Source: Balanoglossus misakiensis (taxonomy: Eukaryota; Animalia; Hemichordata). From it: a stretch of DNA of 64,000 nucleotides. Positions 3,801-31,975 of the stretch are shown here, in pieces. Location of the stretch: positions 9,553,403-9,617,402 of the forward strand of contig CM082587.2 of NCBI GenBank assembly GCA_040954595.2. The letters run 5' to 3'. The stretch's first letter is position 1. The number at the start of each line of letters is the position of its first letter. Below the pieces are notes generated by a model. That model saw only the letters and a list, made by a program, of their open reading frames with translations, was not told the origin of the DNA and ran no database searches. Made by a program: the position numbers and the translations under genes.

Positions 3801-6490
3801 TGGGCAGCATACTGTCCACTCTGGCCTGGTTACTGTACGTGTGCTCTGGTTAATGTTGACACACAGGTTGACTGCACCAAACACTCAAAATTAATAGGCA
3901 GCATACTGTCCACTCTGGCCTGGTTACTGTGTGCTCTGGTTAATGTTGACGCAAAGGTTGACCCCACCAAACACTCAAAATTAATGGGCAGCATACTGTA
4001 CACTCTGGCCTGATTACTGTCTGGCCTGGTTGATGTTGACGCAAAGGTTGACCCCACCAAACACTCAAAATTAATGGGCAGCATACTGTCCACTCTTGCC
4101 TGGTTACTGTGTGCTCTGGTTAATGTTGACTCAAAGGTTGACCCCACCAAACACTCAAAATTAATGGGCAGCATACTGTCCACTCTGGCCTGGTTACGGT
4201 GAGCTCTGGTTGACATTGACGCAAAGGTTGACTCCACCAAACACTCAAAATTAATGGGCAGCATACTATCCACTCTGGCCTGGTTTCTGTCTGGCCTGGT
4301 TAATGTTGACGCAAAGGTTGACCCCACCAAACACTCAAAATTAATGGGCAGAATACTGTACACTCTGGCCTGGTTACTGTGTGCTCTGGTTAATGTTGAC
4401 GCAAAGGTTGACCCCACCAAACACTCAAAATTAATGGGCAGCATACTGTCCACTCTGGCCTGGTTACTGTCTGGCCTGGTTAATGTTGACGCACAGGTTG
4501 ACCCAACCAAACACTCAAAATTAATGGGCAGCATACTGTCCACTCTTGCCTGGTTACTGTGTGCTCTGGTTAATGTTGACTCAAAGGTTGACCCCACCAA
4601 ACACTCAAAATTAATGGGCAGCATACTGTCCACTCTGGTCTGGTTACTGTGTGCTCTGGTTAATGTTGACGCACAGGTTGACCCAACCAAACACTCAAAA
4701 TTAATGGGCAGCATACTGTCAGCTCTGGCCTGGTTACTGTGTGCTCTGGTTAATGTTGACGCAAAGGTTGACCCCACCAAACACTCAAAATTAATGGGCA
4801 GCATACTGTCCACTCTGGTATGGTTACTGTGTCTTCTGGTTAATGTTGACGCAAAGGTTGACCCCACCAAACACTCAAAATTAATGGGCAGCATACTGTC
4901 CACTCTTGCCTGGTTACTGTGTGCTCTGGTTAATGTTGACGCAAAGGTTGATCCCACCAAACACTCAAAATTAATGGGCAGCATACTGTACACTCTGGCC
5001 TGATTACTGTCTGGCCTGGTTGATGTTGACGCAAAGGTTGACCCCACCAAACACTCAAAATTAATGGGCAGCATACTGTCTACTCTGGCCTGGTTACTGT
5101 CTGGCCTGGTTAATGTTGACACACAGGTTGACCCCACCAAACACTCAAAATTAATGGGCAGCATACTGTCCACTCTTGCCTGGTTATTGTGTGCTGTGGT
5201 TAATATTGACACACAGGTTGACCCGACTAAACACTCAAAATAAATGGGCAGCATACTGTCCACTCTTGCCTGGTTACTGTCTGGCCTGGTTAATGTTGAC
5301 GCACAGGTTGACCCCACCAAACACTCAAAATTAATGGGCAGCATACTGTCCACTCTGGCCTGGTTATTGTGTGCTGTGGTTAATATTGACACACAGGTTG
5401 ACCCGACTAAACACTCAAAATTAATGGGCAGCATACTGTCCACTCTAGCCTGGTTACTGTGTGTTCTGGTTAATGTTGACACAAAGATTGACCCCACCAA
5501 ACAATCAAAATTAATGGGCAGCATACTGTCCACTCTGGCCTGGTTATTGTGTGCTCTGGTTAATGTTGACGCAAAGGTTGGCCCCACTAAACACTCAAAA
5601 TTAATGGGCAGCATACTGTCCACTCTAGCCTGGTTACTGTGTGTTCTGGTTAATGTTGACACAAAGATTGACCCCACCAAACAATCAAAATTAATGGGCA
5701 GCATACTGTCCACTCTGGCCTGGTTACTGTGTGCTCTGGTTAATGTTGACGCAAAGCTTGACCCCACCAAACACTCAAAATTAATGGGCAGCATACTGTC
5801 CACTCTGGCCTGGTTACTGTGTGCTCTGGTTAATGTTGACGCAAAGGTTGACCCCACCAAACACTCAAAATTAATGGGCAGCATAATGTCCACTCTGGCC
5901 TGGTTACTGTGTGCTCTGGTTAATGTTGACGCAAAGGTTGACCCCACCAAACACTCAAAATTAATGGGCAGCATACTGTCCACTCTGGCCTGGTTACTGT
6001 CTGGCCTGGTTAATGTTGACGCACAGGTTGACCCCACCAAACACTCAAAATTAATTGGCAGCATACTGTCCACTCTGGCCTGGTTACTGTCTGGCCTGGT
6101 TAATGTTGACGCACAGGTTGACCCCCACCAAACACTCAAAATTAATGGGCAGCATACTGTCCACTCTGGCCTGGTTGCTGTCTGGCCTGGTTAATGTTGA
6201 TGCAAAGGTTGACCCCACCAAACACTCAAAATTAATGGGCAGGATACTGGCCACTCTGGCCTGGTTAATGTTGAAGCAAAGGTTGACCCCACCAAACACT
6301 CGAAATTAATGGGCAGCATACTGTCCACTCTGGCCTGGTTACTGTGTGCTCTGGTTAATGTTGACGCAAAGGTTGACCCCACCAAACACTCAAAATTAAT
6401 GGGAAGCATACTGTCCACACTGGCCTGGTTACTGTCTGGCCTTGTTAATGTTGACGCAAAGGTTTACCGCAGCAAACACTGCAAATTAAA
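811..6490. repeat. 90-bp tandem repeat array (~63 units) with higher-order blocks
   Basis: Unit ~AAACACTCAAAATTAATGGGCAGCATACTGTCCACTCTGGCCTGGTTACTGTGTGCTCTGGTTAATGTTGACGCAAAGGTTGACCCCACC repeats every 90 bp. The 30-aa repeat ORFs on both strands follow from a unit length divisible by 3. Confidence 0.97.
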
Positions 6491-9905: not shown

Positions 9906-10409
9906 GAACCAAAACAGTGGCAGCGTATTCAAACACTTACTATGTTGTCACGTTAAAGGCACATAAGCTGCAACTTTTGGGATAATTATCATAATTTTTG
10001 TTTCAAACTGTACTACCATTAGTCTATGCAGATGAAGGCAGAGAACTAAACACAAGCATTATAAACCCTAAATATGAATGCATATGCAAGTTCTAAGCAG
10101 ATAAATAATAAAGCTTTGCCGCAAGCGATTATGGCCGCCACCGTGGGAAAATGCAAAAAACAACAAAAATGTTGCATTTCCGGTTATGAAACTTTATAAA
10201 CAAAACATGATCTCATCCACTTGAGCTCATGAAAGTAAATGTACACCGCTGAGACATTATATTTTCCTTTTTCTTTCCAATATTGCACTTTTTTAAGAAT
10301 TGCAGAAATTTTCGTTTTTCTTCAATTTTTGGCTATTTTGTCATAAATAAGTGTTGAGCTTGATATATTATCATGAAATATCATTTAATAGACATGATTA
10401 AAAGCATAT

Positions 10410-11462
10410 ATGAGATTATTTAAAACTTTAATTTTTTGTCCAGTTGCAGCTCATGTGCCTTTAATTTGCTTAATTTCAGAGAGTTTCCGCAGAGAGCTCT
10501 ACCAAGAATGGATTACCTTTAGACAGAACGCTGATGCTCCGTCATCAACAATTACCCGAAAGTCTCAGTGGAAGTCTTTCCTTCTGTTTTGCGTTAGACT
10601 ACAACAAACTCCTCTTCCAGCCTCTGTGGAACTGGTTTGCCTGTACTTAGTATACCTTGCTAGGGACAAAAAGTACTCATCTATTATCAATTATCTGAGT
10701 GCTGTGCGTAAATTATACCTTGATTTTGGGTTTGCAGACCCACATTTTAATGATTCGTACCTTGTCAAGTGTACTCTGAAAGGAATTCGCCGGATTTTAG
10801 GTGATATTCCTTCCAGGAAACTGGCTATTACTCCGTGCATCCTTCAAAGTATGTATTCAGTTGTAAATGTCTTTTTGCCTACCAACTCAGGGTTTTGGGC
10901 TGCTATTTTGACGGGTTTCCACACATTTTTTCGGAAATCCAATCTCGTTCCCCCATCAGCGGGAAAGTACGATATTGACATACACTTGTCCAGAGGGGAT
11001 ATTTCCATTTTTGGATGGGGTATGGTAGTTCGAGCTAAATGGACCAAGACCATCCAATTTCATGAGCGTACCCTCCTGGTCCCTGTCGTCCGTACATCAG
11101 GGTCATCTCTATGTGCAGTGGCGGCTGTTGAATACCACTTTAAACAGTTTCCTGCAGATTCACAGTCGCCGGCCTTCCTCACTTTAGACGGGCGTCAAAC
11201 CAAAGTCATTAGCCATGCAATGTTTGCAAAGGTGCTCCATAAATGGGTCAGTTTATCAGGTTTTGATGCAACTCAATATTCTGGGCACAGTCTTCGTCGG
11301 GGAGGGGCTACCTTTGCATACAAGTGTGGAGCATCATTAGAAATGATCCAGCTGCAGGGGGATTGGTCGTTCATGGCAGCGCTTGTGTACTTGGCACGCC
11401 CTTTCCGCCAACGCACACAAGTAGCTCAAATGGTCTCCCATGGGCTGGGTACAATGGTTTAG
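10410..11462 (+). CDS. Tyrosine recombinase of a DIRS/Ngaro-type retrotransposon
   Basis: SAM-like N-domain (W.SFLLFC...YLVYLA...IINYLSAVR) and catalytic motifs FFRKSNL (R), KWTKT (K), HSLRRGGA (HxxR) and GDWS...VY (W/Y). Lies downstream of the RNase H fragment. The first ~25 aa probably derive from unrelated inserted DNA. Confidence 0.9.
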   Translation: MRLFKTLIFCPVAAHVPLICLISESFRRELYQEWITFRQNADAPSSTITRKSQWKSFLLFCVRLQQTPLPASVELVCLYLVYLARDKKYSSIINYLSAVRKLYLDFGFADPHFNDSYLVKCTLKGIRRILGDIPSRKLAITPCILQSMYSVVNVFLPTNSGFWAAILTGFHTFFRKSNLVPPSAGKYDIDIHLSRGDISIFGWGMVVRAKWTKTIQFHERTLLVPVVRTSGSSLCAVAAVEYHFKQFPADSQSPAFLTLDGRQTKVISHAMFAKVLHKWVSLSGFDATQYSGHSLRRGGATFAYKCGASLEMIQLQGDWSFMAALVYLARPFRQRTQVAQMVSHGLGTMV

Positions 11463-12611: not shown

Positions 12612-13348
12612 TGCATGAAATACCTATTTAAGAACCTTGGTAATTTCTGAGGGATAAATTACGATGATTGTTAATTTGTAATGAGAAAATATCATCGCAT
12701 CGACTGAAAATAACTCTTTGTCAGCTAGAACCTTGAGTTGTTTTGACTTTATAGGGTGTAAAACGTAAGAACCACGAGTTTTCGGTAAGAAACACGGCTA
12801 TGCATGAAACTGCCTATTTTCATGCACAGCCGTGGTTCTTACCGAAAAATCGTGGTTCTTACGTTTTACACCCTACACAGTCAAAACAAGTCAGTGTTCT
12901 AGCTGACAAAGTCTTATTTTAGTCGATGCGATGATAATTTCTCATTAAAAATTAACAATTACCGCTCTATAGCTCTCTCATATCAGCAAGGTTCTTAGAT
13001 AGGCAGTTTCATGCATTGCCGTGGTTCTTACCGAAAAATCGTGGTTCTTACCGAAAAATCGGGGTTCTTACGTTATACAGCCTACAAAGTCAAACATTTT
13101 CAAGGTTCTAGCTTACAAAGTCTTAATTTTAGTCGATGCGATGATAATTTCTCATTAAAAATTATCAATTACCGCTCTATAGCTCTCTCATATCATCAAG
13201 GTTCTTAGATAGGCAGTTTCATGCATAGCCGTGGTTCTTACCGAAAAATCGTGGTTCTCACGTTATACAGTCTACAAAGTCAAAAGTTTTCAAGGTTCTA
13301 GCTCACGAAGTCTTAATTTTAGTCGATGGGATGATAATTTCTCATTAA
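12612..13348. repeat. ~200-bp repeat family: one inverted copy (palindrome centred ~12813) plus tandem copies; left part of an interrupted array
   Basis: 12612-12809 is the approximate reverse complement of 12818-13015. Further direct copies run to 13348, where the unit breaks at CTCATTAA and resumes at 31574. Confidence 0.9.
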
Positions 13349-13549
13349 CAGTTCGTGTTCAGTCTAAAATAAGACATCGTTTCTTCGCGGAAAGCGATGC
13401 GCAATAGGACATATTAATATTAATTAGCTAATGCGGAAGTATTGTACACAGAGTTATGTTCGGCTGTTTTCGGTCATTATTTAATCCCCATAAGCCGTTC
13501 ATTCGACTATTTTCGGATGTAACATCATCTAGAGAGGTCAGTGGACACA

Positions 13550-16500
13550 ATGGCGGAGTTTCAACGAGGTAAGTTCAAAACTTTGCCAGCTACGATCGAT
13601 CGAATTTTTGGTTGTTGTGGTCGCTGATGTCAACATATTTTGCTGCCTGACCAACAAGTAATACCTCTTTTTCTTGGTGCTTCTTTTGTATACTTGTACT
13701 CGTTCAATCGGCGTTTTTTTAGGTCCCATTGGTATAGGCATATATACCATGGGACCTTATGGGATCGGTTGCGTCTGTATGTATGTATGGATGTATGGAT
13801 GGATGGATGGATGGATGGATGTCTGTATGTCCGTCCACATCAAAAACTTGAAAACCGCTGCGCGTATCACCTCAATATTTGGTGTGTAGGTGCAGGCTGG
13901 GCTGTAGATGGGAGTTTGTCCAAACAAAGTTGCCAGGCCCAACAAATATGCAAATTAGCTGGAAAAATGTGAAATTTATCAAAACTCTGAAAGTCAACAA
14001 CTACTCGTCAGATTGCTTTAAAAATTGGTATGCATGTACCATATGTCAACCTCACATCGACCTGTAAGTGTTAAGTTAATATCATCGATGTTTTATTTTT
14101 TTATGAATTTTTTAGTCTTTTTATTAAATTTATACCTTTACTTATACCTCTATGGTTAAGCTATGTCCACATCTTATTGTGGAATTCTGGTCTGTGCAAT
14201 AGTCCTGTACAGTGACTGTCTATTGGTCAGTGAGCACAATGGGGCCAAAATAAAAGGCAAAATTTTGGGCTCACCTGTAACACCTGCTTAACACATTAAT
14301 TATGTGCATATCTAATTCCGGGCTAACTAATAGGGCTAGAGGTTTCGTTCTTGTGGGACATGGACCAGTATAGGGTCAAAATTTCTTGCCCAAATTTTGG
14401 GTGACCTCAGGTGACCTTTGACCTACTTTCCTATATCTCGGCATCCAGAGCAGGTACAGACTTGGCGTTTGGAGGGTTGGGACTAAAATTGAAAAGCCAA
14501 AATTGGGGGTCACCTGTGACACCTGCATATCTCATTAATTATGTGCATACCTAATTCCAGGCTAACCAATAGGGCTATAGGTTTGGTTTTTGTTGAACAT
14601 GGACCAGTATAGGGTCAAAATTTCTTGCCCAAATTTTGCATGACCTCAGGTGACCTTTGACCTACTTTATCATATCTTGACATCCAGAGCAGGTACAGAC
14701 TTGGCGTTTGGAGGGTTGGGACTAAAATTGAAAAGCCAAAATTGGGGGTCACCTGTGACACCTGCATATCTCATTAATTATGTGCATACCTAATTCCAGG
14801 CTAACCAATAGGGCTATAGGTTTGGTTTTTGTTGAACATGGACCAGTATAGGGTTAAAATTCCTTGCCCAAATTTTGCATAACCTCAGGTGACCTTTGAC
14901 CTACTTTTCCATATCTTGGCATCCAGAGCAGATATGCTTATTACTATGTTGCTATGTGCTATGTTGGCTTGGGCCCGATATTGCTGATTGCAGATCTGCT
15001 TGCAATGTCACCTGTAATTTTTATTCTGGTGTGTCACTGTTTCCGCATAATCCTCAAATGGGACCACAGTGTCCTTGACGCTATTTTTTCAATTTTCTGA
15101 CGAACAAGAAAGTAATCTTTCCATCGATGTATGACACGTGGTAACTGGTCATTGGGGAAAAATGGGGAAAACTTTTTAAAATTCCTTAGTCGTGTTGATC
15201 GTGACATGCATGTCAGTAATGAACCTCGTATGTGTAGTTCTAGTCAATTGTACATGTATATATCCTGTATTACGGCATTTGTTCTCTGCTTTGGCAAAGG
15301 CCTGTCATGAATGAATGAATACAGTAGTGACGACGTGCATGGCCATTGCAAATACACAATTTGTGACACTATTTTATGTAAATTGGAAATAAATTTCAGT
15401 CCTTTTCCAACAGCTGTTATCAAGTGTTGATGTTGTAACCACTGCATTTCATTTCTCAACAGAATCAGATATCCCTAAAGCTTCAGCCGCAGACATAAGC
15501 ATGATAAGGATTGAAAGTTCTGTTAGAGGGTAGGTAGTCTCATTGTTTTAAACAGTAACACTTATCAATCAATCACATGAATCAATGACTTGTGAATTAT
15601 CAAGTGGTTCCCATTTACTCAACAACCTCCAGTGTACTTGACTGAACTGATGTGTGCATTTTTTTCACAGCTATCATGTTTTCAGGGTAAAACCTCACCC
15701 AGATGTATGGTTGAGGGTGACACCTGAAGAGGGCAACCTATATGATGAAACAGCCATGGGGGTTTGGTACCCTGGTTTAGCTGACATACCTCCTGAGAAA
15801 CACAACATTATAGCTAGAGAGGCAAACAAACGAGGGCCTCAACAAATGGTGAAAGAAAATGCATCCAAACAGGTTGGCAGAGTGCCAGCGAACCTGTGTG
15901 GGAAGTTCAAAGAGTTACTGGAAAACAGGATGGTCACAAAGATTGAATGGTAAGATTTTCATTGTACTTTACAGTTAGCAAATAGAGCAGAAAGCATGCA
16001 TAATAGGTAAGGTAATTTCACAAAATGTATTTTTTCCATTTATTTTCTTTGTGCATTTCTTAATGACTAGTTTTTTGACTAACATATTATCTGTTGCAAG
16101 TGTATAGTGTCACAGTTTTCATGACAAGTAATTACTTCACTTGAACATCACTTGTAATGTAAATTGTAAAATACTTTCCCTAGGTACTCGGACGTGTTTC
16201 TATGAATTTGTTTTCTTTTCTTTTCTCTTTCAGTCAGTTCACTGGGGATGCTGGTCCAAGTAAAACCCCAGCACAACACCAACGCTTTAAGAAGAGCCGT
16301 GTGAATAGAGACCAGCCAGGGGGAGGAGCCATCCTGTCATGTATATATCACGTGCATACCAAAGCTGGCTGTGTAGAAGAAACCAAAGAGGCACTTGACA
16401 AAACCTTAAGACATATGGCAGGTATGGCCAAACGACTGCCATAGTTTCTTTGATTACTCAGATTGTTTCAGTTCACAGTTTCTGTGTCTAGTTTTAGTAC

Positions 16501-19500
16501 TTATTCTGTTGTGTTAGATACAAGTTTTAGTATTTATAGTTTTGTTTTCTACAGTTTTAGCATTTAAAATAACTGTGTTTTTTTGCATCCTAAATTTTAG
16601 ATTTTTACTGATGCTGTTCTGTTTCAACAATTCTGGTCATGGGTCTCAATTTCAGTCATCACAAAATGCATGCAACGACACCATGTCAAGCATTTGATAG
16701 TCTTGTCAATGTCCACATTTTACATCCTGTTTTTTTTTTCTTAAATTTTGTAGTTTTACAAATATTTACTAAATTTACAAGTCTGCCATTGTCCTGAAAA
16801 ATCACTAGAGTTAATATACACATGAAGTGTGTTGTTGTCAATTTGAAGAAAAATTGAAAAATGTCAAGAAAAGAAAAGTGCTGAACAACTTTACTCCAGA
16901 TAAATGTTTTATACGATGTTTTATACATATATGTTATATATTTTGTTGTTATAATTAAAAGTTAATATATTTATGATTACATTTATAATTGTTGGCTATG
17001 ATTTATTTGCATGCTTACAGATCTTGATGATGAAGTTACTTGCCATATCAGTGTGTTGTTGACTGTGTGCAGGATATGTGCAACACAAATAACAGACTTC
17101 ACCAGAGCCCGTCATGTATCTGACTTCACACCTGTGATTGATAATACATGGGGTATTGATGTCAGAAGTGACAAAGAAGAAATCCATCCGATGTATGTGT
17201 GTAATACATGTAGAAGAACCCTTGAGTACCATAAAACATGTATGGAAAAAAATAAGAAGTATAAAACTGACAAAGTCATGAAAAGTTTCTACCCTCATGA
17301 TGACACCTGTGTGCTTTGTTTCCCTGTGGACAAAGCTGACCATACATATGCTGAGACAAGCAGTGAGTTATGCAAATATGACAAATGCAGCATTAAATTA
17401 GTAAGTACAGGAACTCAAACCATCCCATCAGTAACAATACCAACAGAGACAGGTGATGTCACTCACCTTGACACAGAAATGAAGCAGAAAATCACAAAAA
17501 ATATCTTTCATCTTGAAGCCAAGGAAATAGCCCAGGACTTTAACTCCTTCGACCAAACGTACAAAGACCTATCAAACTGTGTAAACTTCAATCCTGATAT
17601 GTACTACAGGCAAAGGAATCCCATGGTCAGAAGTGTCATAGAAGGACTTGAAATGGGTTCAAATGTAGCTGCTACTATTGGAGTCAAAATGATGGCTGTA
17701 GAACAGTTATATCAGATTGTTTGCTCATGGCGGATTGCTCCATTCGCATTCCTAGTTTCACTACTTCTATATGCGGTGACTGGCAGTGCTTTGGTAATAT
17801 CTGTCATTAGTAGGCTAACTCCAAGTGGCAGTTGGACAACATTTAGGAGATGGCTCAATTCACTGACCAGTGAACCTATACAACTACCTGCTGCAGGGGA
17901 TCTCTCCATTGCCTTTGACAATGACCAGATTGTGCAGAAACAGTATGAGGTCAAAGCAGGTGGAAAACCAAGGGTTTCTATCCTCACTAGCATCTGTTAT
18001 TCAATACTGGGACATGAGGGACTTCAATTCAAACCAAACTTGGCTCCAAGGTAAGGCTTGTCATTTAGTGACGCAAGTCTGTGTAACTTTTGCATCGACA
18101 CCTCAACAAATGCTATTTGTGTATCACCATAAGTAGATTTGTATCATCTTGATGTCATACAAGGAACACACTCTATATCATGGTAAACACAGCAAGATTA
18201 TATAGAATGAAGTGGTCAAGAAGCACCAACTCTTGGACACAATGTTCTTCAATGCAAACTAATTTTATTTCTGACGTTTCGTGGGATTAATCCCACTTCA
18301 TCAGGGTAAAAATTGCCGATTATATGTATGTGTCAACATTATATGTATGTGTAAATTTTTAAGTGTCACGTTCAAAAGCATAGTCCACTGCAGCTGTAAA
18401 AATACATGCATGATCTTTCTTTAGAAACTGGATGAAATATTCGGAATCAGGAAACCAAGTGGAAGTGAAGACGATGCTCACTGCCAAGATATTAGATCAG
18501 ACAAAAATATCCAAGGGCTTCCAGATTGTTCGAGGAGAAGTAAGTATGCTGTAATATATATTTTAAAAAGAAAATATATTATATTTTTAGTTAGTGGTAC
18601 AATTGTATTTTCTGAGGACAAGTGAGATTTCAACAATACAATTACATTTTTTTTATTTGTGTTGCATGTAACAATAGGAACATGTCAAATTGACTTTGTC
18701 AGCTACTTCATTGATTCTAATGTGATGTTTTCTCAGTTGAAACGAATGACCCAGAAAGCTCTGGAAGATGTAGTACTGCAGCAGTTCAATGAGGGTGGCA
18801 GTTTCTTGGATGACATAGACCAACGTGTAGATGAGATAGAAAAAAAACAAAGAGAGAAAGCTATGTCCAGTGTGTGATACAGCCATGAAGAAAACAGCCA
18901 GGAAATGTCCTAATGAAAGTTGCAGGGCCAACTTCAAGGAAGCTACAGAAAAGTTGACAGGTGCCGACCACTGTTTTATTATTATTTTATTTTTTGATGA
19001 AATACTTGGCATAGAGAGACAATTGTAAGAAATATGACATCTAACCTAAATGTAAAATACATGTAGTATTGTCTCACAGGTACACCAAGATATAATTTAC
19101 GAATCATAAAGACATTAGATAAAAAGAAAATCTCCAGAGATGTTGCTAAAGCATTAATGATAACTGATTCCTAATCTTTTTTAATGCAGGCAAGGAGTCT
19201 CTTGGAACTATGCTTATCCGAACACCAAAGGAAAATTCCAAAATGAAAGCATTCATTGTAAGCATCTCTAAAACTGGGGAAGAAGCAAATGTTGAAACTG
19301 CAACTGATGATGTAGCTGCCAACTACAGCCACCTACAGTCAGGTCATCCTGGACACCCAGTACAGGTATTCTGTGGAGAACCTGTCTTCGTCAATCCCAA
19401 CTCTTACAAGACAGTTACAGCAGTCCTCCTGAAGATAGGGGAAGCAGGCAATGTTGCAAGAACTGGATTAAACAACTCTAATGTCGGTGATGGAAAACGA

Positions 19501-22024
19501 TGCTGGTTGAAAGTGACGATGGATGGTCTACCCTACATGATTGCGCGTAAGGTGGTTACAGAGTCTTTTCACTGTGACCTTTGTTCGGAAACTATTAGTG
19601 GAATGGCTGCATATGAAAGACATGTTCATACTAATCACCAGTACTGTCCCCTTCCAAAACCACAGCTTGAGTTTGGTTGGGTTGTACTCAGTCCAGGCAA
19701 ATTGCATATGGAAATGAATATGGTGAGAAATTTCCTTGCTGTTAACTGGGAGGTCTTCATGTCTGACTTAGCCCATGAAATGGGCTTTATATCAGAGAAA
19801 GCACAACAATATGCAAAGAGTGGAGGAGATCACCATATTGCTTGGCAGCTACTGAATGTGGCTGTCCAAGGCAACATTCGGGAATTATTGGTGCCCTATG
19901 TTCGTGATCGTTTGTTAAAGGAGCAGTCGGTGTCTGTGAACGATTTCATCCACTATGCTTCTGAAGCTAAAGATGCAAACTACACGTATATGTTTGAGCA
20001 AACCTACAGGTATGCAGGTGCCATTTTGGTATACAGGATGGGAGTTAGACTGAACAGGGCAGACCTCATATCTGGAGCATCTCTAGTGTTTTCTCCGCTT
20101 TGGAGCAGAAGCAAAGATTCAAAGTATCAACTCTTGGACCTATACAACAGGTACGTAACACTAAATTTATATTAAACTCTTTTAAGACTGTATTGTCCTA
20201 CCCGCACTCTTAGATCTATTGATCAACGTCATCTTACTCCAGTATTGGCAAATACCAAACCATCGGTCAGTGTATGTACTTTTTCGTACACGGCTCCTAA
20301 ACACTGGAATTTTCTACCCCTAGAATTTGGACTTTGCAAATCTATTGACACATTTAAAAGGCAGTTCAAGACTCATCTTTTTATGTAACTTGTTTTAAAA
20401 GAGATGTCACATCTTAATCCCCAGGGCGGACAGAGCAATGATGCCCAATGAACTACTGTCATTTTTGGAGACAAGTGAAAGTGTTTCTGTAACAGGAAGT
20501 TTATATCATGGAGAGGATATGGATGCTCGCCTTGAAGAAATCAACAAAGCCTCTAAACGGTGGTCTGCTGGGGCCATGTTTGTCAATGAATGGACACGAA
20601 CATTCAGGAATTTGGATAACCTGACAGAGGTAATGTACAATATTTTTCTGGTAAACTAGTACTTCTATGAAAACCTATAAATCTGAGTTAGTGCCCCTTG
20701 TAACTTTGTGGAGAGGTCATTCACCTCTGTTCAACTGCAACTTCAAGGAAGGCGACCTCCATTGTCTTTTTACACTTGATGAGAAAAAGGGGAAAAAACG
20801 AAACCCCTGACTTTAAAGCTCCAACACATGTGCTGAACCCAGGCTACACAGCTCTAAACTCCACATTCACAGACTTACATGGTCTTCAGCAGTGAGAAGT
20901 GAGTATCAGGGTCAGTAAGTTGAGCAGTAAGGGAGTGTCACTAATACTTCCTTTTATTCATCAAGTGTGCACAGATGATCAAGGTCGACTTCTTTGAAGT
21001 TGCTGTTGACCAGAGGTGTATCTCTACAAAGAGCTATGGTAAAATATCTCTTCTCTTTCAAATCTTACAGCTTAGAAAGAAAATGGAATCCACTTTGAAC
21101 ATAGCAGAAAGGTCTAGCTCAAGTAATCCATCAAGATTGAGGAAAGAGGGAGAAGTTACTGCTTGGCGTGTTAAACTCCGTAAAGAAAAGTAAGTTATTT
21201 TATTCATTGAAAAAACCTTCCTAAACCACACCTGAATGATAGTTTGTAAGGCTGATTCTTTGAAGTTTAAGTTGACTAGTATCAAGTATTTTCAGCAATC
21301 AAATCAACTTTTTATATTTTTGCCCACTTGAGCACTTTTGACAAGGAATATAGATCAACTGAATGATTTCAACACTTCTAATCTGTTTCTGTTTGTAGAA
21401 CTGTGTTCTTGAGGTGTGTGCCTCTGTAATCAATTAATTTTACTTCAATGAAATGTCATAGATTTCTCAAAAAATGTATTAGAGCCAAATCTTGATGCAG
21501 GAAATGAATGTTTCAGAGCAAGATTTCTGTAACCAATATATAATCAGTGGCATCTTTCATAACATTGTGTGTAACCATTTCTTTCCAGGTATCTCACGAC
21601 TCCATCAGAGGAAAGAGCCCATGTTGGTCTGGATGGTAAAGAACTGGATGCTGGCCTGAAAAATATCACAGCCATTTCTGAAGTTAATCAGAGAATAGTG
21701 CTAGACAAAGTTGTCTTGGGTGGGGCTTCAAAAGGCAGTGTTCGTCATGAGTTGACTCCTGTGTATGTTACCGTCGAGGAAAGGAACAAGCGTGAAGCTC
21801 TAGAAAATCAAACAAAGGCACAACTAATAAAACTTGTTCAGGCAGCTCTCGAGAAAGTCAGCGACAGTGACTTACAGTTCGAATTTTCCGAGACATTCAA
21901 AAGTGTAAGAAAGGCCAAAAAGGAGAAAGTCATTGAATTTTATAGGGAGCTTGAGGAAGTGAGTGTTTTACAAGCTGCAGAGGAGTTGGCAAAAGATGAC
22001 CTTGAGCCTGAAAATATTGAATAA
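13550..22024 (+). CDS. Spliced ~1035-aa DDE transposase with RAG1/Chapa-type N-terminal Zn domain (one +1 frameshift in an A8 run)
   Basis: Phase-compatible GT-AG exons: 13550-13568 (inferred first exon), 17021-18050, 18425-18539, 18737-18960, 19190-20150, 20425-20629, 21071-21189, 21589-22024. Total is 3108 nt after removing one A at 18840-18847. Motifs: HISVLLTVCRIC...DKEEIHPMYVCNTC...HDDTCVLC; AFDND; CPVC...CPNESC; MDGLPY...CDLC; PGKLHMEMN; DARLEEINK. Confidence 0.85.
13776..13835 (+). repeat. (GTAT)n/(GGAT)n microsatellite
   Basis: gtatgtatgtatggatgtatggatggatggatggatggatggatgtctgtatgtccgtcc. Confidence 0.9.
14255..14930. repeat. ~239-bp tandem repeat (~2.8 copies) inside the HINE-like element
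   Basis: GGGGTCACCTGTGACACCTGCATATCTCATTAATTATGTGC recurs at ~14506 and ~14745, with a diverged copy at ~14267. Confidence 0.85.
15463..16444 (+). CDS. Spliced HIRAN-like domain protein
   Basis: Exons 15463 (or ATG 15501)-15529, 15671-15949 and 16234-16444 join in phase. Product: MIRIESSVRG|YHVFRVKP...PEEGNLYDETAMGVW...VGRVPANL...IEC|QFTG...GGGAILSCIY, matching the VRGYH / EP.N.YD..A..V / VG.VP pattern of HIRAN folds. Confidence 0.75.
18262..18312 (-). ncRNA. Minimal type I hammerhead ribozyme (Penelope-like element remnant)
   Basis: Minus strand reads CC-CUGAUGA-A-GUGGGA-UUAA-UCCCAC-GAAA-CGUC-A: both core boxes, perfect stem II, and the palindromic ACGU in place of stem III. Confidence 0.7.
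20205..20385 (+). mobile_element. 3' end fragment of an L2/CR1-group LINE in a transposase intron
   Basis: Translates to ...FSYTAPKHWNFLP...KSIDTFKRQFKTHLF, the typical ORF2 C-terminal motif. Confidence 0.65.
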
Positions 22025-22049
22025 ACAAACCATCTATCTATCTACCTTA

Positions 22050-22735
22050 CATCAGCTTCAGATGTGATAGTGAGATATGCTATTGTATCATCAGCAAATA
22101 GTCTTACTGTGGAATTTAAACCTGTTTGAATATCATTGGTGTAGTATAAGAACAAAGATGGGCCCAATACAGAGCCTTGTGGGACTCCCGATTCATACAG
22201 TGTCTGATGATATACCGTCTATCGCTACTACTTGGGTACGTTGATGGAGGAAGGATTGTATCCAATTAAGGGTTTTACCCCTTATACCATAGTGATGTAG
22301 CTTGTGAACCAACAAATTGTGACAAACTCTATCAAAGGCTTTGGAAAAGTCCATGACTAGGACATCTGTTTGTTTACCATTTTCCATGTTTTGGGTCAAA
22401 TCGTCTATGAGCTCTAGTAGCTGAGTCTCACAGGATCTACGCTGTCTAAATCCATGTTGTAGTGGATAGAAAATATTATGCGTTTCTGCATGATTCATGA
22501 TGTGTTTTGTCACAATGTGTTCCATAAGTTTTCAACAAATACATGTAAGTGATATGGGTCTGTAGTTTTCTGCTTTATACTTCTGACCTTTCTTGAATAT
22601 AGGTGTCACAGTAGCTTTGCGCCAGTCTTGTGGAACTTCACCACTGTCATAGGACATACCGAATATAGTAGTTAGTATTGGTGTTAATTCAACTGCTAGT
22701 TGTTTCAGCACATATGGTTTGATATTATCAGGACT
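22050..22735 (-). pseudogene. Non-LTR retrotransposon (CR1/L2-group) reverse transcriptase fragment
   Basis: VPQDWRKATVTPIFKKG...NYRPISLTCIC, QHGFRQRRSCETQL, DFSKAFDRV, then SGVPQGSVLGP and LFADDT. Contains stops and a small deletion; truncated at both ends. Confidence 0.92.
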
Positions 22736-23295
22736 ATATGTAGTATTTGTAAACACAGATAATATATTTATTTGAACAAATAAATAACAAATATAAATTT
22801 AAAACTCTGTTATAAAGTGTGTCTAATATAAATATAATTTTTTTACACGGTACGAACATTTTGTTGTTGTTGTAAATATCACAATATTTCTGTCTCAAAT
22901 AGAAAAATATTGCTCGACCCTGAGTCCTTAGTAACACAAACCTACCCCCTGGTCATGATATGATGACAAGGCAATGAATCTATGAAGTATTAAATAAAGA
23001 ACACAAAAGGTTCCAGAGTCTACCAGTAAAATGGATCAGGAGGAGTCATTACACATGGAATGAGGCCAAAAGTAACATTTTTGCAGGGAATAATAGGAAA
23101 AAACAACAGAATTTGGTTCAAAAAAGTACTGAAAAAAGGACATTTCTCTGCTATAGTAACCAACAAACTAAGAACAAACTAAATGTTTCTATCGCCACTT
23201 AACAGACAACCTAAGCAAATTTTCTACTTTAACAAAATATTAAAAACTATAACAAACGTATCTTGAATCATGCAGAGTCTATGCTTAAACCCATA

Positions 23296-24583
23296 CTAAT
23301 GGTCCCGCGTGACATTGTGTTCAAACATCTGAACATGAGGCCCATGAACATCTGAAGACGTGACGTTCTTATTTGGTGTTGGTTCCAATGGTGTCACCAA
23401 ATTTGCTGTATCAGATGCACAAGGTACAATCTCCACATTTCCATTTGCCACTGACAGCTTTCCCCTCTGAAAATCCTCAAGGGCTTCATGACTACCATAC
23501 ACACGGGTTTTATCTTTACTTCGAATATACAGAAGAATTTCTTCTCCTGTACAGACATGGTAGTCATTCACCTAAAAGCAAATAAAATTGATAACATTAT
23601 TATAGGCTTATGATAATGAATACAACACAAAATTAAAATTTGGACAAATAATTTTCAAAAAATATCATATGAATGACAACAAAATTTCATTGTGAAAGAT
23701 CAGTTTTACTATAACAACAAAAGATACAACATAAAACTTTCTACAATATAAAACCTCATAGATTTGTTTATTTTTCTATCAGTAAGCAGGACAATTTATT
23801 ATTTAGTATCTGCCATATCATTTGTTGTTTGAAAAGTATAACAACGTATTGTACAAATGTAGCTGTCCCACAAGAATAAACTTACCTTCTTAAGGAATCC
23901 CTTCCTTTGCTTGCTGCCAAAACTACTCCGTCTATGTTTATCGGCCAGATATTCAATTTTTATCTTCTTCTTTCCATACTTCACTTTTCTGGAAACTTCT
24001 TTGTGCGCTTTCTTGTTTGGCGTTAGAAATTGGTCTGCAGACTGAAATGACAAAACTAATGTTGAAAGGCAAAGAAACTGCAAGCTCTATTTGAAGGTCG
24101 AATAGGCTGGTCTATTAAGTTCCAGAACGGAGACAAGCTTATTTGACGGTTACGTTCATAGGGTACGCTACCAATCACACTCCTATCTGGCTGGTGAGAC
24201 AAACACACAACCAACTTTAACTTTAGCACAAGCGAAGGAACAACGAACTATACGCTGAAATGTGCCTCAAAGTGACGAAATCGGTTGTCTGGTTATATAT
24301 AATGCGAATGACTTTTAACACGAGTTAGAATGCTATCGAAAATATACGGAAATGGTTCGATTGCTTTGTCTGTTCAATGGTCAACACAAGTACGCGTCAA
24401 GTGACAAGTACGCGCCAAGTGACATGCCAATGCCATTGCATGTCGCGTACTTACTTAAAAACTATACGTTTTTGCTAATGCTAATTTTTGCTAAAACATT
24501 AGTTTTTGCTAATGTTCAACACGTAAACTAAATTCAGGAGGTCGAACTGATATAGAAATGATACTCACAGTTGATGGATCCAT
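23296..24583 (-). CDS. Spliced ~148-aa SRF-type MADS-box-like protein, convergent with the transposase
   Basis: Phase-0 exons 24583-24569 (MDPST, inferred), 24041-23886 and 23571-23296. They give GKKKIKIEYLADKHRRSSFGSKQRKGFLKK|VNDYHVCTGEEILLYIRSKDKTRVYGS, colinear with the SRF MADS box (GRVKIKMEFIDNKLRRYTTFSKRKTGIMKKAYELSTLTGTQVLLLVAS). Confidence 0.75.
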
Positions 24584-25154
24584 TCCGACGGACCGAGACA
24601 CAGAAATCTGGAAACAATCGATACGAGGAACTCCCTTCGACCGCGACCTTCTACCATGTCTACATGCAATCGACACGAGGAACTCCCTTTGACCTTCTAC
24701 ATGACCTGACCCAATTCCATGTTCCGGTTCCTGTCGCACTTGCGCAGTACCATTTCATTGCATTGCGAATGCGCAGAAACGATGTCTTATTTTAGACTGA
24801 ACACGAACTGATTAAGGTGGCATTGCATGAAAACTAGTGATTTTTGCCAAATTTTACTTTTTTACATAAATCGGTAGGTCTAGTACTGACCCACATTCTG
24901 ACAAATGCGTCTTGGTGGAAATGGTACATAATCACCCAAAAATAGCACTTTTTTGAATGAGTCCGCAGCTGCACGCGTTCTTGTTTACCTACAGACGTAA
25001 TTTACGTTAAACGGTTTCACACCGAAGTCATGATTGACATGGATTATGCAAAATAGTTGCTAAAAGGCAGAGGTCAAATAAAGATCATTAACAATACATA
25101 TAGGTCTCAGCTGCATATCTTCATTACAAACATTACAAAGATCACAGTGCAAAG

Positions 25155-28100
25155 ATGGACATCCAAGTGCGTTCCCGTCGCAGAAAACGTAGGCGAGGAT
25201 TAAAAAAACAGAATTTCAAAAGATGGATCGCGAGCGACCTTGAACGTGTCCAAGCGCTAGCCAGCAAGCAAACTGGTTCTGACACAGAGTCCGACGCATT
25301 GGATATGGATGGCAGTTACGATTCGGACGACCACTTCGAAGGAGGGGATTTGCCTTCGCAGCCGGGTACGAGCGCTTCTTTTCAAAAAGTGGCACTGGAT
25401 GGATTTGCTGCGGCAGACACCACTGAAGACCAACTTGAAGAAACTTTACGTATAATAGATTTATCTATGCTGAACCACGTACTTGAGAAAGTTGCCCTGT
25501 GTAAACTTTGTACAAAAGGGACAGTCAAGATCGTTGAGACGTACTTTATTGCAGGGCTGGGAAGTAATTTCCGAGCGTCCTGTAACAATCCCGCCTGCCC
25601 AAGATCTATCGCTTCAATTGATCGAGAATTCTATTCATCCAAGAAGACGGGCAAAGTTTTCGATATCAACAGGAAAAAGTCCTTGCTATGCGTGCCGTCG
25701 GAAGTGGACGAAGGGGGTGCGTGAAATTATCAGCGTACCTGGGACTTCCGGCCCCTGTCTGGCACCACCCGTATCAGAAGCACGTCGCTGGCATGGCGGA
25801 TACCACTGAGCAGAAAATTGACCAAGAATTGGTGAAAGCTGCCCAAGAATTGAGAGAGCTCAAATTTGAAATTGGGGAGATTTCTTCGGTCGATGAAACC
25901 GCGAATGTAGCAGTTTCGGTCGACGGGTCTTGGAACACAAGAGGCTTTTCATCGATGTACGGCTTTGTTAGCTGCATTTCAATGGATACAGGTAAATTTC
26001 AAATTCTGTCATAAAATTTACTTGTAATCATTGTTATCTTTTCATCAGTGTTTATATATGTATATATTCAACGATATCACTCAGAAAACACGCCGATTAT
26101 CAATTTGGCTCCGCGTCTATAGCAGTGATCAACCACAAGGTAAATACATGTGAGCCAGCGATTGCAGGAAAGGACTAAAATAATGTAATGTGTATGCTGT
26201 CATAACTACCAGGAAATATTTTGTGTGTGTTTCAGGAGAATATTATCTTCAAAAGCACTGACTACATGTACATGTATATTGTTACAGGCTTCAAAGCTGT
26301 TTTTTGTTCGCCTGTATTAATGCAAAAGCCGAGCGTACAAAACCTATGCCGAGCTATTGTCCAATGTGTGAAAAAGGTCGTTAGGCTGGTCGTTGACATC
26401 ACCCAGCTGCTAACTTATCACCAGAGCAAATTCTGATGATTTTTGAACTACGAATTTAGGAAAGATTCGTCTTCCCCTTTCTTTATAAAGACAGTCACTG
26501 GCAATGAATGTGGAATGTGCAAAAGATTTATCAAATCTAGGAAGAGCCCAACTTCACGCATTTATAATTGTGGTTGTCGGTCTGAGACACCTTGAAGAAA
26601 ATCACGCAACGTCTTGCAAGATTGTCACAAAAGTCGAGTCAGTATTGATAAAGCGGCTTCTCTGACCTCAAGCTGATTTGCGATGACATGTTTTACTGTC
26701 ATTCTCTTTCAGGCAAGGTCTTGGACAGGCATATTTTGTCTGCAAGGTGCAGCCAATGTCAAAAATGGGAGCAGAAACCAAAGGACCATGTGTACATGGA
26801 ATGGTTTATCGAGCATGAACCCAATTGCGAGATAAACCATGACGGATCTGCCAAAAGCATGGAAGACGCTGGGGTTCGGATACTGTTCGAAAGGTCAATA
26901 GAAAAGCACAACTTTCGGTAAGAAAATATACATTATTACTTGTAAAAGTATCGACGATTTTTCATGATAAACTCTACCCTTATATTTGGCTCTGCAACTT
27001 TGGTAACAATCCATTTCTTTCGAAGACGGTTTACAGTTTCAGCAAGACAACTCTTCGGTGTTATTACAAATTTCACTTGTTATTGTCATTGTTTTTTTTT
27101 ACATAAATGTACAAAGTGAAAAGATAATCACATCTTTCCCCTTTATTTGTATACACAGGTACACCAAGTACATTGGAGATGGGGATAGTTCAGCGTACAC
27201 AAGTGTGAGAGACGTTTATGAAGGTGACGGCATAATTGTCGAGAAAGAAGATTGTGTCGGCCACATACAGAAGAGAATGGGAACGCATTTAAGAAAACTT
27301 GTGGATAAGAGTAAAGGTAAAAAAAACTACACAGATTTTAAAATTTATAAATGACTGCATGGACTCTTCATATGTTAGTACAACGTCATTCAATACTTCA
27401 TTAGTCCTGTTACGAGTACATCTATAGGATGGCCATTAAATTGATCGAAAATGTGTTTCTTTTTTCTAACAGGTGGAAAACTTGAAGATGGTAAAGGGTT
27501 GACAGGCCGAAACCGGTTGACAAACCAAATGATTAATGCCTTCCAGGTTTTCTATGGGATTGCCATTCGGAACAACAAAGGTAAGGCGAAACTTAAAATA
27601 AATATTTGACATGTGCTGACATGACAAAGTGGTAGACAACACAGAAAAATACGTGCATTTTTCTATGTCTTCTTGAAAATCTCTTCAGTATATGCCTAGG
27701 CTGAAAAATTGAAACAAGAAATGTGTCATCCAACTATCGTGGTCTCAGGATCATTTATTGACATTACATAACTTCAATTTTGATTCAGGTAACATAGTCG
27801 AGATGGGCAGGCAGACTCGGGCAATTCTGGAGCATTATTCAAGTACAAGTGAGTTGCCCCGTCATGACAACTGCGCCAAGGTTGCCAAAAGCTGGTGCAA
27901 ATGGCAGCAGGATCGAGTAACTGGAACGACTACGTATAGACCACTGAAACATCCACTCGCTCCAGCCATCGTCAATGCCGTTCAACCAATCATCAACAAA
28001 TTGTCAGATGAGACTCTTCTGAAGGGAGCAGAAAACTGCTATACGCAGAATCAGAATGAAAGTCTGCATAGCACGATGTGGAACTGGCTTCCCAAAGAAC

Positions 28101-28477
28101 AGTACCATGGTTGGAGCGAGATTCGGCTGGGAGTCAACATGGCAGTCGCTCACTTCAATTCGGGAATGGCCAGTTTCAACACCGACTTGTATTTGTCCTG
28201 TAAGTTCAATGTGAGTATGTCCTCTAGAAAATCGTGGTTAGGCCTAGACCACGGAAGAGTTTACCATGCAGAATACAAGTCCGACGCGTCTGTTAAACTA
28301 CAAAGAAAACGGCTAAAGAGAAGGCGTCTGCAGAAGTTGGATAAATTCCAGTACGCGGAGGGCGAGAATTACCAAGCCAGTGCATTCGACAAGGCCACGG
28401 TTACATCTGGACCCAGGCGCTGCAAATCATGTTTACAGCCCATGAGAGGACACCCACGAGGACAGTGTAGAGAGTGA
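25155..28477 (+). pseudogene. Spliced DDE transposase (Kolobok / 'Mutator-like' GDGDS family) with a frameshift near 25675
   Basis: Exons 25155-25991, 26713-26917, 27159-27316, 27473-27580 and 27789-28477. Motifs VSVDGSWNTRGFSSMYG, NHDGSAKSME, YIGDGDSS, EDCVGHIQKR, TQNQNES, and a C-terminal CxxC..H..C knuckle. FDINRK continues into VLAMRAVG only after a 1-nt shift. Confidence 0.88.
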
Positions 28478-28791
28478 CACTGACAAACCGAGAAATCAGC
28501 AACATTTGTGTAATGCATCAATGTAGATTGTATTACCAAGTATATACTGGGAATTTTAATGTATGGATGCTGATTGTGATCATTTGTTTATGTTTGACGG
28601 GATTCATAGATGATGTTCTGTGCTGATAAATCAGAGACAGCAGAATATTTGTATTGTGATGTTCAAATATTTATTAAAATCCACTTACAGTGCAGTGCAG
28701 TAAATGCAGTAAAATGTCAGTACATGTAATAGAAAAAAAAAATTTAGGGTTTATTTCATATCAATGGAAATAATGTAAATTCGGGTATCTT

Positions 28792-29742
28792 CTAAAGCTT
28801 GGCAGAAATGGCGTCAACAAACTCTTCCATGGTAACGTCGTAGGCACCCTGCAATTAAGAAAATACAAATGAATTCAGACCTATTACCTCAATGTATAAC
28901 CGTCATTTACTGTTTTCTATTCAAATCAGTCATTGTATAGGAAAAATATATGTGGTGTCTTTTTGTCATTGTTATGTGAAACCGGTTAACACCACCCATT
29001 TATTTGTTGATTTATTTTGCAATCTTCTTTTATTTCATAAAGGTACTTTGCTATAAACTGAAGCTGAATTTACTTTGTAGAGGTTTCAAACTACTGTTCT
29101 TGTACAAAACCCTTGACAATTAAATTAGATAGGAAATTCAAAATAGAGTGTACCTTTATTAACACATCTTTCTTGTCCACATCTTACAGTGTAATAAATT
29201 TCCTTCGTTTGAGATTCATGACAGTTGACACCCGAATATAGTTTTCACATACCTGCAACAGTTCCCCTTTTATATTCCTTGGCAATAGCTTGCGTAAATA
29301 GACCAGCACCACTGGAGGATAGCTATATTGCGCACCAACGGGTCCAACTTCTTTGGCCTACAATAAGTACAAGGAAAATAAGTGAATGAAAACCACAGAC
29401 TGCAACCGAATGGCTTCGTACGTATGCACACACAAAACACCACGTATAGCGCCGCTACATACCACTTTACGACACATACACTTTTACACGTCCCTACACT
29501 TCCCGAATGTCGTAAATGTCGCGAAAATATACACGTATTTTGCGATGTTTCTCTCCCCTGTACCGGATCCGGTCAAATACGATCGATCGTGTTTAGCGAT
29601 TTTCATGGGATACTTACGTAGAGAGCGTGGGCCCAGTGGCAGTATAATATCCATCGAATCCGTTTCTGCCCTATGCCCCTTTTCCTTCTCTCCGCGACCA
29701 TTTTTTTCAATAGCGTCACAGAACATGTCGCCGAGATTTGAT
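28792..29742 (-). CDS. KolX-like accessory protein (3' exons; 5' exon(s) probably near 30105-30190)
   Basis: In-phase exons 29742-29618, 29357-29253 and 28848-28792 give ...KRIRWILYCHWAHALY|AKEVGPVGAQYSYPPVVLVYLRKLLPRNIKGELLQ|GAYDVTMEEFVDAISAKL*. This resembles the R...Y...W and P..V...IR...P motifs of KolX, and the gene is tail-to-tail with the transposase. Not in the ORF track. Confidence 0.6.
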
Positions 29743-31573
29743 CTGAAAAAGATTATGCATAGCTTGAATCATTGACTCTGCAGTGCACACTTGGCCTTGG
29801 CTTTTACCTATGTGATTTCACACAGAAATTTCTATATAATTCTATTTTAACGTTTCGCCGACCACTGTCGTAATGCTTTTTGCATTTGTTGCCATTGCAT
29901 CAAATGGCCATTTCAGTGTCGTGTGAGACAAAAGTAGCATCACGCCTGTTTTGACGTGAAGTGTTTCTACAGTCGTAGAAAGGCACAGGTAAACAGGATA
30001 ACACGTGTAATAAACCATGCTGACTGGTTTTGCGTGTAAGTAGGGTACACAATTCATTAATACGTATATTACTGTGTAAATGAGCGAGGGAAATGTATAC
30101 TTACCGGCAATTCTGGAAGGCTCGAACTACAGCAGTTCTTGCACGGAAAATCGGATCCATAACAAAACGTGTTATTTGCAAGATGCTCGGTGTAAGAAAT
30201 AAACAGACTACGGCAAAATTGAGGTAAAAGCGACGCTTTCCTTTCTAGATAAACAACATGACGTCATCATTGAAGCCGATGTCTTGTTACCCTTCGCAGA
30301 AAGAAGCCACCCATCACAAAAGTTGTTTATTGTATGTGTGAAACGGGAAACGATGCGCGTGCATCTGTCCAGTTGGCACGCTTTTCTTCAGACAACTGTA
30401 ATATAAATGTCCGAGTTTTGGTTTTTTTTTGGCGGGTGCTACACCCCATATAATTGTTGAAAACGTGTTGAAGTAGTTTATGTCGCTGTTTCCTATTTTT
30501 CTATGGACTTTGTGACTGCAGTGCACTGCTCGTTTTCCGTTTTATTGGCCTGGAAAATCACTGCGTTGCTACTGCACTGCACTAGCTATAAGCGGTCTTC
30601 GATTTGTTGTGGAGATAGAACCCGTTTCATCCAAATAGCACTACTCTGTTGTCTCGAATACTGTTATCGCTTTCAAAACAATGATTATTTATTCTTTCCT
30701 TGCCGATAAACAGTTTGTTTGATAAGAGTGTCCAAGCTTCGGACTAATCTCTTGCCGTTGCCTTGTAAACACAATCCCGATGTAATGACCCGCCCATGTT
30801 TGCAGAGGAAATAGATTATGTCACATAGCGGGAGTGCCTGGGCGCGTTTACCTCAGAATCGGCGAAGTTTTTCAGCTTAATTTCCGTCGTTAGATTGGAT
30901 TTCATGTCCGATGCACATTCAAGTTATTTAATTACCCCTTGTCGATATATTTGTGGGGTTTTGTTTTTTTTGACGTCGATACTTTCGAGGCAGGAGGAGA
31001 AATAAGTGTCAACAATGCAAATTGCCGTTTTTCTCGGTTTGCATTTTCGCTGCTTTTGGCAACTTCGGACTAAAATAGCTTCGCCCTGCGTAGGCCGAAT
31101 TTGCTCAAATTTTGAGAGGGAATTGTGTATGACCCATCCAACAAAATGGTAGTTTTGTTTGTCGATAGAGTGTCCCTGGCGGGAATAAACTCTGATTCAA
31201 TACAACTCACCGTGAATTTGATCAAATTTTCTGAAAATCTAACTTTCAAACACTGTTACTCCTCAATGGAAGCAGATAACGCAAAACAAAATTACCGTTG
31301 TTTGCACGTGTACTCTAGTTTCGAATGACATATTAAGATGCATAATGCATGGTCAACTTTTTTACCTATTTTAAATTTCATGACATAATATCAAAAATGT
31401 TTTTTTTTTCACCCAAAATCGCCACCATTTCCGGGGATCAATAATATTTGCAACTCAAACAAAAGTTCAAAATCTCAGCTTCCAGAATATATATGGTTTA
31501 TGGGGGTTTTAACTTTGTCTTTGATGAGAAATAGGCCTCTGAAAAAGTCTCGACGGTTTCATGCAATGCCACC

Positions 31574-31975
31574 TTAAAAACTAACAATCACCGCTCTATA
31601 GCTCTCTCATATCATCAAGGTTCTTAGATAGACATTTTCATGCATAGCCGTGGTTCTTAGCCAAAAATCGTGGTTCTTACCGAAAGATCGTGGTTCTTAC
31701 GTTTTACACCAAAGTCAAAACAAGTCAGTGTTTTAGCTGACAAAGTCTTATTTTTAGTCGATGCGATGATAATTTCTCATTAAAAATTTATAATTATCGT
31801 AATTTATCTCTCTGAAATCACCAAGGTTCTTAAATTGGCATTTTCATGCATAGCCGTGGTTCTTACCGAAAAATCGTGGTTCTTACGTTTTACACCCTAC
31901 AAAGTCAAAACAAGTCAGTGTTCTAGCTGACAAAGTCTTATTGTTAGTCGATGCGATGATAATTTCTCATTAAAC
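31574..31975. repeat. Right part of the interrupted ~200-bp repeat array
   Basis: TTAAAAACTAACAATCACCGCTCTATAGCTCTCTCATATC continues exactly where the unit broke at 13348, followed by about two more copies. Confidence 0.9.

Follow-up and report, generated by a model that had tools for sequence, protein, structure and literature searches.

A DNA transposon of Balanoglossus misakiensis that combines a RAG1/Chapaev-type finger with a DUF6589-related predicted DDE core: a likely undescribed lineage

Here, we describe a DNA transposon from the hemichordate Balanoglossus misakiensis. It is located in a stretch of 64,000 nucleotides, referred to as the window (NCBI GenBank assembly GCA_040954595.2, contig CM082587.2, positions 9,553,403 to 9,617,402 of the forward strand), where it comprises positions 13349-24810 with a length of 11,462 bp. 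The element is bounded by terminal inverted repeats (TIRs), is flanked by a 5-bp target-site duplication (TSD) and encodes a predicted DDE cut-and-paste transposase, in which the N-terminal finger known from RAG1 and Chapaev is joined to a core related to DUF6589. We estimate a probability of roughly two in three that this description is correct and that the element represents an undescribed lineage. In addition, it harbors a MADS-box-like and a HIRAN-like gene.

The left TIR (13349-13384, plus strand) begins with CAG and the right TIR (24775-24810, minus strand) finishes with CTG. As stated in a first-pass annotation of this DNA, both repeats are perfect over 36 bp (36/36 identical positions), and 39/40 positions agree when they are extended to 13388 and 24771, respectively. 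Two occurrences of the outer 20-mer were counted in the window, compared with an expectation of 0.02. Directly outside the TIRs lie two copies of ATTAA (13344-13348 and 24811-24815), and the TTAA of the right copy doubles as the left target duplication of a second, Kolobok-like element. The left flank is one unit of a 190-210-bp host repeat, and the right flank is the left end of this second element (24816-31573). An initial candidate explanation, in which the right flank was the inverted end of the host repeat itself, was ruled out when the flank proved to be the Kolobok-like element. Excision of both elements together with one copy each of ATTAA and TTAA yields a gap-free host tandem unit, so that the earlier reconstruction of the ATTAA duplication from the host repeat holds, in two steps instead of one. 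Aligned to three other host units, the rebuilt junction reaches scores of 175, 182 and 122 under the 5-bp model, compared with 162, 169 and 109 for a model without duplication and 170, 177 and 117 for a 4-bp duplication with one A left in the host. Because the gap-free rebuild outscores these alternatives, the 5-bp duplication is well supported in this copy. Judged by the junctions, an alternative may be a TTAA duplication of 4 bp, in which the right end would be asymmetric by one base (..CTGA); 5 bp is the simplest reading.

Further copies were found in sequencing reads from three DNA runs, all of one sample, which is possibly the source sample. The left junction of the window is present without any difference in two of the three runs. 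Two further TIR flanks were recovered, both of them AT-rich, one ending in TTAA and the other in AATAT; therefore, the element occupies at least two AT-rich sites and shows no specificity for TTAA. Read joints from 13717 to 15084 and from 15240 to 24149 define a derivative of 1200 bp with both ends and no genes, which implies that the family also produced a 1.2-kb non-autonomous deletion derivative. Read depth is several-fold higher at the element ends than in the interior, and this depth is not a copy number.

Within the element, three gene models with GT..AG introns can be assembled, with splicing derived from the sequence, in agreement with the three spliced genes proposed before. The transposase gene is located at 17021-22024 on the plus strand (exons 17021-18050, 18425-18539, 18737-18960, 19190-20150, 20425-20629, 21071-21189 and 21589-22024) and is preceded by a putative first coding exon at 13550-13568 on the same strand; an in-frame ATG at 17011 is another possible start. 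Genomic homologs share four of the intron positions of the transposase; in several metagenome loci, the homolog is a single intron-free frame. The protein of about 1036 amino acids contains an NZD/Chapa finger, a treble-clef finger and a DDE core (D306, D575, E821) into which a C2H2 finger is inserted.

The N-terminus had been called RAG1-like, and this is supported by a match above cut-off to the Pfam family RAG1_imp_bd (E 1.3e-5) as well as by matches to the RAG1 NZD structure PDB 21WB (E 8.8e-7 from the window exon and 4.5e-12 from the family profile). Residues H15, C23, C26, C67, H99, C103 and C106 are invariant in 12/12 full-length members. The finger ligands, His plus His-Cys-Cys, correspond to type I as described in the consulted portion of the NZD preprint (2026), and the features defining the Chapa domain of Chapaev are found in the window transposase and its family. 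In the sections of PMC4411706 (2015) available to us, the Chapa domain is said to occur in no other known transposon, and the same portion of the NZD preprint presents Chapaev as the sole lineage consistently retaining an NZD-like domain, sporadic proteins aside. These sporadic proteins may include members of the transposon family described here. After RAG1 and Chapaev, the lineage is likely a third group with this finger.

The core was modeled for the homolog L001 from 129 sequences (pLDDT 92.1, pTM 0.88); a full-length fold based on 6 sequences was of low quality (pLDDT 46.8), and a Foldseek search with it was uninformative. The L001 model predicts an RNase H-like fold that contains a large helical insertion. 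The candidate catalytic residues are conserved to 94% (D), 100% (D) and 98% (E) among the rows covering them, and D306, D575 and E821 are intact in the window transposase, which supports the DDE core of the first-pass annotation. The ratio of non-synonymous to synonymous substitutions (dN/dS) amounts to 0.13 and 0.09 in two homolog pairs. Only three of 48,161 chains compared with the L001 core reach a Z score of at least 8, namely the P element (11.2), ISCth4 (8.7) and Hermes (8.6). The P element is the best structural match (319 residues aligned, root-mean-square deviation 5.8), and RAG1 (Z 7.2) gives the longest alignment (357 residues, root-mean-square deviation 6.8). Integrases score below Hermes, alongside RAG1, followed by BbRAGL (Z 6.5) and HzTransib (Z 4.5). 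In the stretch from the second D to the E, the family has a C pair and an H pair 13 residues apart, which form a local beta-beta-alpha C2H2 finger; the His pair of RAG1 lies far downstream, near the catalytic E. The sole family match on the core is DUF6589. It is weak for the window exon (E 4.5e-4) and, among 42 long relatives, exceeds the curated cut-off in 7; the Atlas clusters of second rank are DUF6589 to 93%. We assume that DUF6589 covers Academ transposases.

The family is large. Its profile matched 2701 clusters (50% identity) at E<=1e-3 and 449 at 1e-30; the best 150 of the 2701 were inspected, and host names were looked up for 30 clusters. The hosts named in this way include Ptychodera, Saccoglossus, Branchiostoma, Amphiura, Lytechinus, Holothuria, Owenia, Crassostrea and the fungus Gigaspora, that is, hemichordates, amphioxus, echinoderms, an annelid, an oyster and a fungus. 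The Ptychodera homolog is 61% identical to the window on the largest exon, and no relatives were found in viral or prokaryote contigs. Among 156 proteins examined, 16 of the 36 with at least 880 amino acids carry the NZD, as do 16 of 40 metagenome loci, 7 of which went into the profile. In the full tree of 48 rows, NZD-bearing rows form two strongly supported groups inside a branch with 90% support. A reduced tree was calculated after removal of 14 of the 48 rows (N-terminally incomplete sequences, near-copies and long branches); here, a branch with 98% support unites 18 NZD rows with one further row, and the approximately unbiased test does not reject one NZD clade (p-AU 0.134). In the NZD-less relatives P0073, P0088, P0092, P0096, P0099, P0100 and P0182, a different Cys/His-rich N-terminus stands in place of the finger, which suggests an exchange of N-terminal fingers within the family. 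At the locus L010, a Harbinger-type DDE_Tnp_4 transposase (4523-5770, minus strand) adjoins a partial homolog.

By the features compared, the lineage appears to differ from AcademX, AcademH and the RAG-like (RAGL) transposons and is likely undescribed in print. No published description of this combination of transposase, ends and cargo was found in the literature searched, mostly at the level of titles, and the parts of PMC10799480, PMC5718144, PMC10294476, PMC8290104 and two preprints that were consulted contain nothing defining for this element. The most serious alternative, not far short of an even chance, is a sub-lineage within Academ that lost the XPG nuclease or helicase, gained other cargo and possibly stands in Repbase or Dfam already, e.g. 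as Academ-2. Academ elements are likewise TIR DDE transposons of animals and fungi, and DUF6589, the only family to match the core, points to them if our assumption on its coverage holds; furthermore, the label Academ-2 exists and bivalves are rich in Academ according to the literature extracts available. On the other hand, the accessible text of PMC10045372 assigns a helicase and TSDs of 9-10 bp to AcademH and a nuclease and TSDs of 3-4 bp to AcademX. Here, the TSD is most simply read as 5 bp and neither enzyme was detected: Pfam searches detected no XPG or helicase domain in the open reading frames (ORFs) of the element or in the 42 long relatives, and no RAG2 kelch gene in the ORFs of the element, as had been noted from the sequence. 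Instead, the element has the NZD and genes for MADS-like and HIRAN-like proteins, and Chapa/NZD is confined to RAG1/RAG1L and Chapaev in the two sources on this domain cited above.

The HIRAN-like gene is located at 15463-16444 on the plus strand (exons 15463-15529, 15671-15949 and 16234-16444; 191 amino acids including the first exon). The MADS-box-like gene at 23296-24583 is encoded on the minus strand, convergent with the transposase (exons 24569-24583, 23886-24041 and 23296-23571; 148 amino acids). The distance from the element ends to the first ATG is 201 and 227 bp, and both genes point inward, in accordance with the range of about 200-230 bp given earlier. The first coding exon at 13550-13568 ends in phase 1 and is in frame with the 15463 exon (HIRAN exon 2) and the 17021 transposase exon alike, which suggests alternative splicing; the HIRAN-like protein and the transposase may be alternative products from this exon.

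Evidence for the MADS-box gene comes from the spliced protein and its homologs. Exon 2 by itself matches SRF only (E 0.5), and the complete spliced protein scores 36.5 bits on a profile made without it, with 9.0 bits as the best of 500 shuffles. The convergent gene of L001 passes the cut-off of Pfam SRF-TF (E 8.8e-11), and the profile of the MADS cargo matches MCM1, SRF and MEF2 (E 3e-11 to 6e-6). The locus L007 likewise has a transposase and, convergent with it, a MADS-like gene that matches the spliced window protein at E 8.5e-8. In this way the MADS-box assignment made from the sequence alone could be tied by profile to an accepted SRF-TF homolog. The MADS-like gene is convergent in three elements (window, L007, L001) with transposases about 33-35% identical, and the three proteins are similar outside the MADS box too. 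For the HIRAN assignment, the likeness is supported by the Atlas, where the top three clusters are HIRAN clusters (0.87-0.88). L007 contains a HIRAN-like ORF beyond the MADS-like gene (tblastn E 0.054; 8.8 bits versus 6.1 for the best of 1000 shuffles). Downstream of a relative from the other NZD group, L020 harbors an ORF of 193 amino acids (5883-6461, plus strand) that appeared MADS-like by eye and matched nothing, so that its reading as a MADS gene was discarded; no family match was found, and it is possibly a different cargo.

In both TIRs, positions 14-27 form a palindrome of 14 bp whose 6-bp core consists of A/T (13362-13375 and 24784-24797). It is a relaxed CArG-like box and a candidate MADS site, which we take to have one mismatch to the MEF2 consensus and two to the SRF consensus. 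From fold, motifs and flanks, the transposase would most likely cleave at the CAG ends with D306, D575 and E821 and join the element into AT-rich DNA with a 5-bp stagger. The MADS-like protein could bind the A/T-cored palindrome as a dimer and bend or pair the ends, and would in this way fill the role of the second gene in other two-gene transposons. HIRAN domains of HLTF and Rad5 hold 3′-OH ends. By analogy, the HIRAN protein of the element might hold free 3′-OH ends during excision or gap repair, and one promoter at the left end could serve HIRAN and transposase through alternative splicing. A working role of the MADS-like protein in transposition is a tentative proposal, with the odds against it rather than for it. 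We consider it improbable that the full extension of these ideas applies, i.e. a new DDE group at the level of a superfamily, in which the MADS protein pairs the ends at the CArG-like box like RAG2L, HIRAN is spliced from the transposase promoter, and the NZD clade is a third partner sharing the finger acquired by RAG1 and one of its candidate sources.

Several findings weigh against the interpretation of the element and its cargo given here. The TSD is derived from a single paired copy, and neither the family TIR nor a convincing TIR/TSD pair was found in the 40 metagenome loci, 12 longer ones of which were scanned more finely. Since no ends were recovered from other loci, the co-occurrence of the genes between TIRs is shown in the window only. 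A Foldseek search of the transposase, as suggested by the first-pass annotation, gave no match at E<=1e-3 with the good L001 core model, and VIA Z scores below about 8 are common. A family of this size could already stand in Repbase under another name. With regard to the cargo, the HIRAN-like protein stays under the Pfam cut-off (E 0.024 on one exon), and in L007 its link is weak and the gene order is unlike that of the window. The question whether the genes travel together had been raised before: beside distant homologs, MADS-like genes recur in 2 of 40 metagenome loci and a HIRAN-like one in 1 of 40, and most loci, which are short, have neither. L020, L023, L010 and L030 show no MADS-like match in 2.8-5.7 kb downstream, and L026 and L027 no HIRAN match in 10 kb upstream. 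The exon structure is a prediction from the DNA sequence. Finally, the CArG-like box was recognized post hoc, and about 2% of 36-mers would be expected to contain such a motif; it occurs in 1.7% of TIR shuffles, and the palindrome in 0.5%.

In another possible reading, the transposon is real and the MADS-like and HIRAN genes are captured or nested passengers that play no part in transposition, with the TIR palindrome as a transposase site or a product of chance. The low recurrence of the cargo, the deviating gene order of L007, the unrelated ORF downstream in L020 and the post hoc motif are all in its favor. We regard it as doubtful nevertheless, as both first exons lie about 200 bp inside the TIRs and as the MADS-like gene keeps its convergent position, and its likeness beyond the MADS box, in three elements with such divergent transposases.

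The CMCT clade (EnSpm, Mirage, Chapaev, Transib) is characterized in the consulted part of PMC12730594 by CA..TG ends, TSDs of 2-5 bp and a C(2)C plus H(3-4)H arrangement. The claim of the first-pass annotation that the element fits none of the groups it considered stands for AcademX, AcademH and RAGL by the features compared, and it left unweighed that ends and TSD fit this clade. That the element is a divergent clade member and related to Chapaev by descent over the whole protein is nonetheless quite unlikely, since besides the fitting ends and TSD, the shared Chapa domain and the longest structural alignment with RAG1, the closely spaced C and H pairs form a local finger unlike the distant His pair of RAG1, the family profile reaches RAG1 through the N-terminal finger alone and, at E<=10, lists neither Transib nor ProtoRAG chains, and RAG1 is outscored by the P element, ISCth4 and Hermes, with HzTransib lower still.

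Chapaev and Chapaev3 (CMC) share with the element the N-terminal Chapa/NZD finger with type I ligands and CA..TG ends. Chapaev has CAC ends and TSDs of 3-4 bp; the element has no RING, CAG ends, a 5-bp TSD and a DUF6589-like core. With RAGL (ProtoRAG, TransibSU) and Transib, it has in common the NZD, a second gene convergent with the transposase and overlapping hosts. However, there is no detectable similarity in core sequence, no RAG2 kelch gene, and the ends are CAG and not CAC as in recombination signal sequences. A 5-bp TSD, as in the element, is given for RAGL/Transib in the available sections of PMC4411706. The best structural matches, P element, hAT (Hermes) and IS256/Mutator (ISCth4), share the RNase H-like core with large helical insertion, at 8-9% identity; the family has a G-x-G/L-H-x-E motif and not the C/DxxH signature. 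Their TSD lengths differ from that of the element. The extract of PMC9587614 attributes the C/DxxH signature to Kolobok/hAT/P/MuDR/Dada, and RR..YY ends and a TTAA TSD to Kolobok; the G-x-G/L-H motif, the CA..TG ends and the non-TTAA flank in the reads place the element outside these groups. N-RAG-TP of Aplysia, considered here by its description alone in part of PMC8355894, is likewise a mobile element with a sequence similar to the RAG1 N-terminus.

The copy in the window carries several lesions that had not been mentioned before. The transposase frame is shifted at a run of eight A (18840-18847, plus strand), which may be a mutation or an assembly error. Three insertions are nested in the element. 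The first, in intron 1 (13718-15083), is a high-copy repeat of 239-bp tandem units that is absent from other copies in the reads, as seen from the joint 13717 to 15084. This repeat has short subterminal inverted repeats and T-rich flanks, and presumably resembles non-autonomous Helentron-type elements. The second, in a transposase intron (20719-21021), is similar to a miniature inverted-repeat transposable element with 72-bp imperfect inverted ends. The third is a reverse-transcriptase fragment of a long interspersed nuclear element on the minus strand (22030-22798, limits approximate; RVT_1 E 1.2e-12) between the two convergent stop codons. Recent activity, as proposed from the identical TIRs and clean splice sites, was overstated, because the frame shift and three nested insertions weaken it for this copy, which is probably dead or decaying.

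The Kolobok-like neighbor (24816-31573, transposase on the plus strand), which had not been named before, has a 17-bp TIR (GG..CC), TTAA on both sides and spliced PF20700 exons (E 2e-13), and matches the Kolobok definition in the extract of PMC9587614. Both transposons share one target site inside the host tandem repeat, whose 190-210-bp units at 12618-13348 and 31574-31978 are split by them; its left end is partly inverted. Elsewhere in the window, an ORF of 354 amino acids (10398-11462, plus strand) shows a weak match to Phage_integrase, a tyrosine recombinase (E 0.006), and likely belongs to a DIRS/Ngaro- or Crypton-type element. The region 955-6489 is taken up by about 59 copies of a 90-bp unit with 93% similarity among them, which stay open for up to 786 codons, and a 130-bp satellite with more than 200 copies and a higher-order period of 390 bp extends over 36164-64000.

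In conclusion, the element is likely an undescribed transposon lineage of marine invertebrates. In a widespread clade, the RAG1-type finger sits on a DDE core of another kind, which would alter how the origin of the RAG1 N-terminus is modeled: the finger would have passed between unrelated transposases on at least one further occasion. Furthermore, a MADS-box protein as standing cargo of an animal transposon, together with a candidate site in the TIR, would offer a testable case of a transcription-factor fold in transposition, and DUF6589-like proteins gain a transposon context and a predicted structure.

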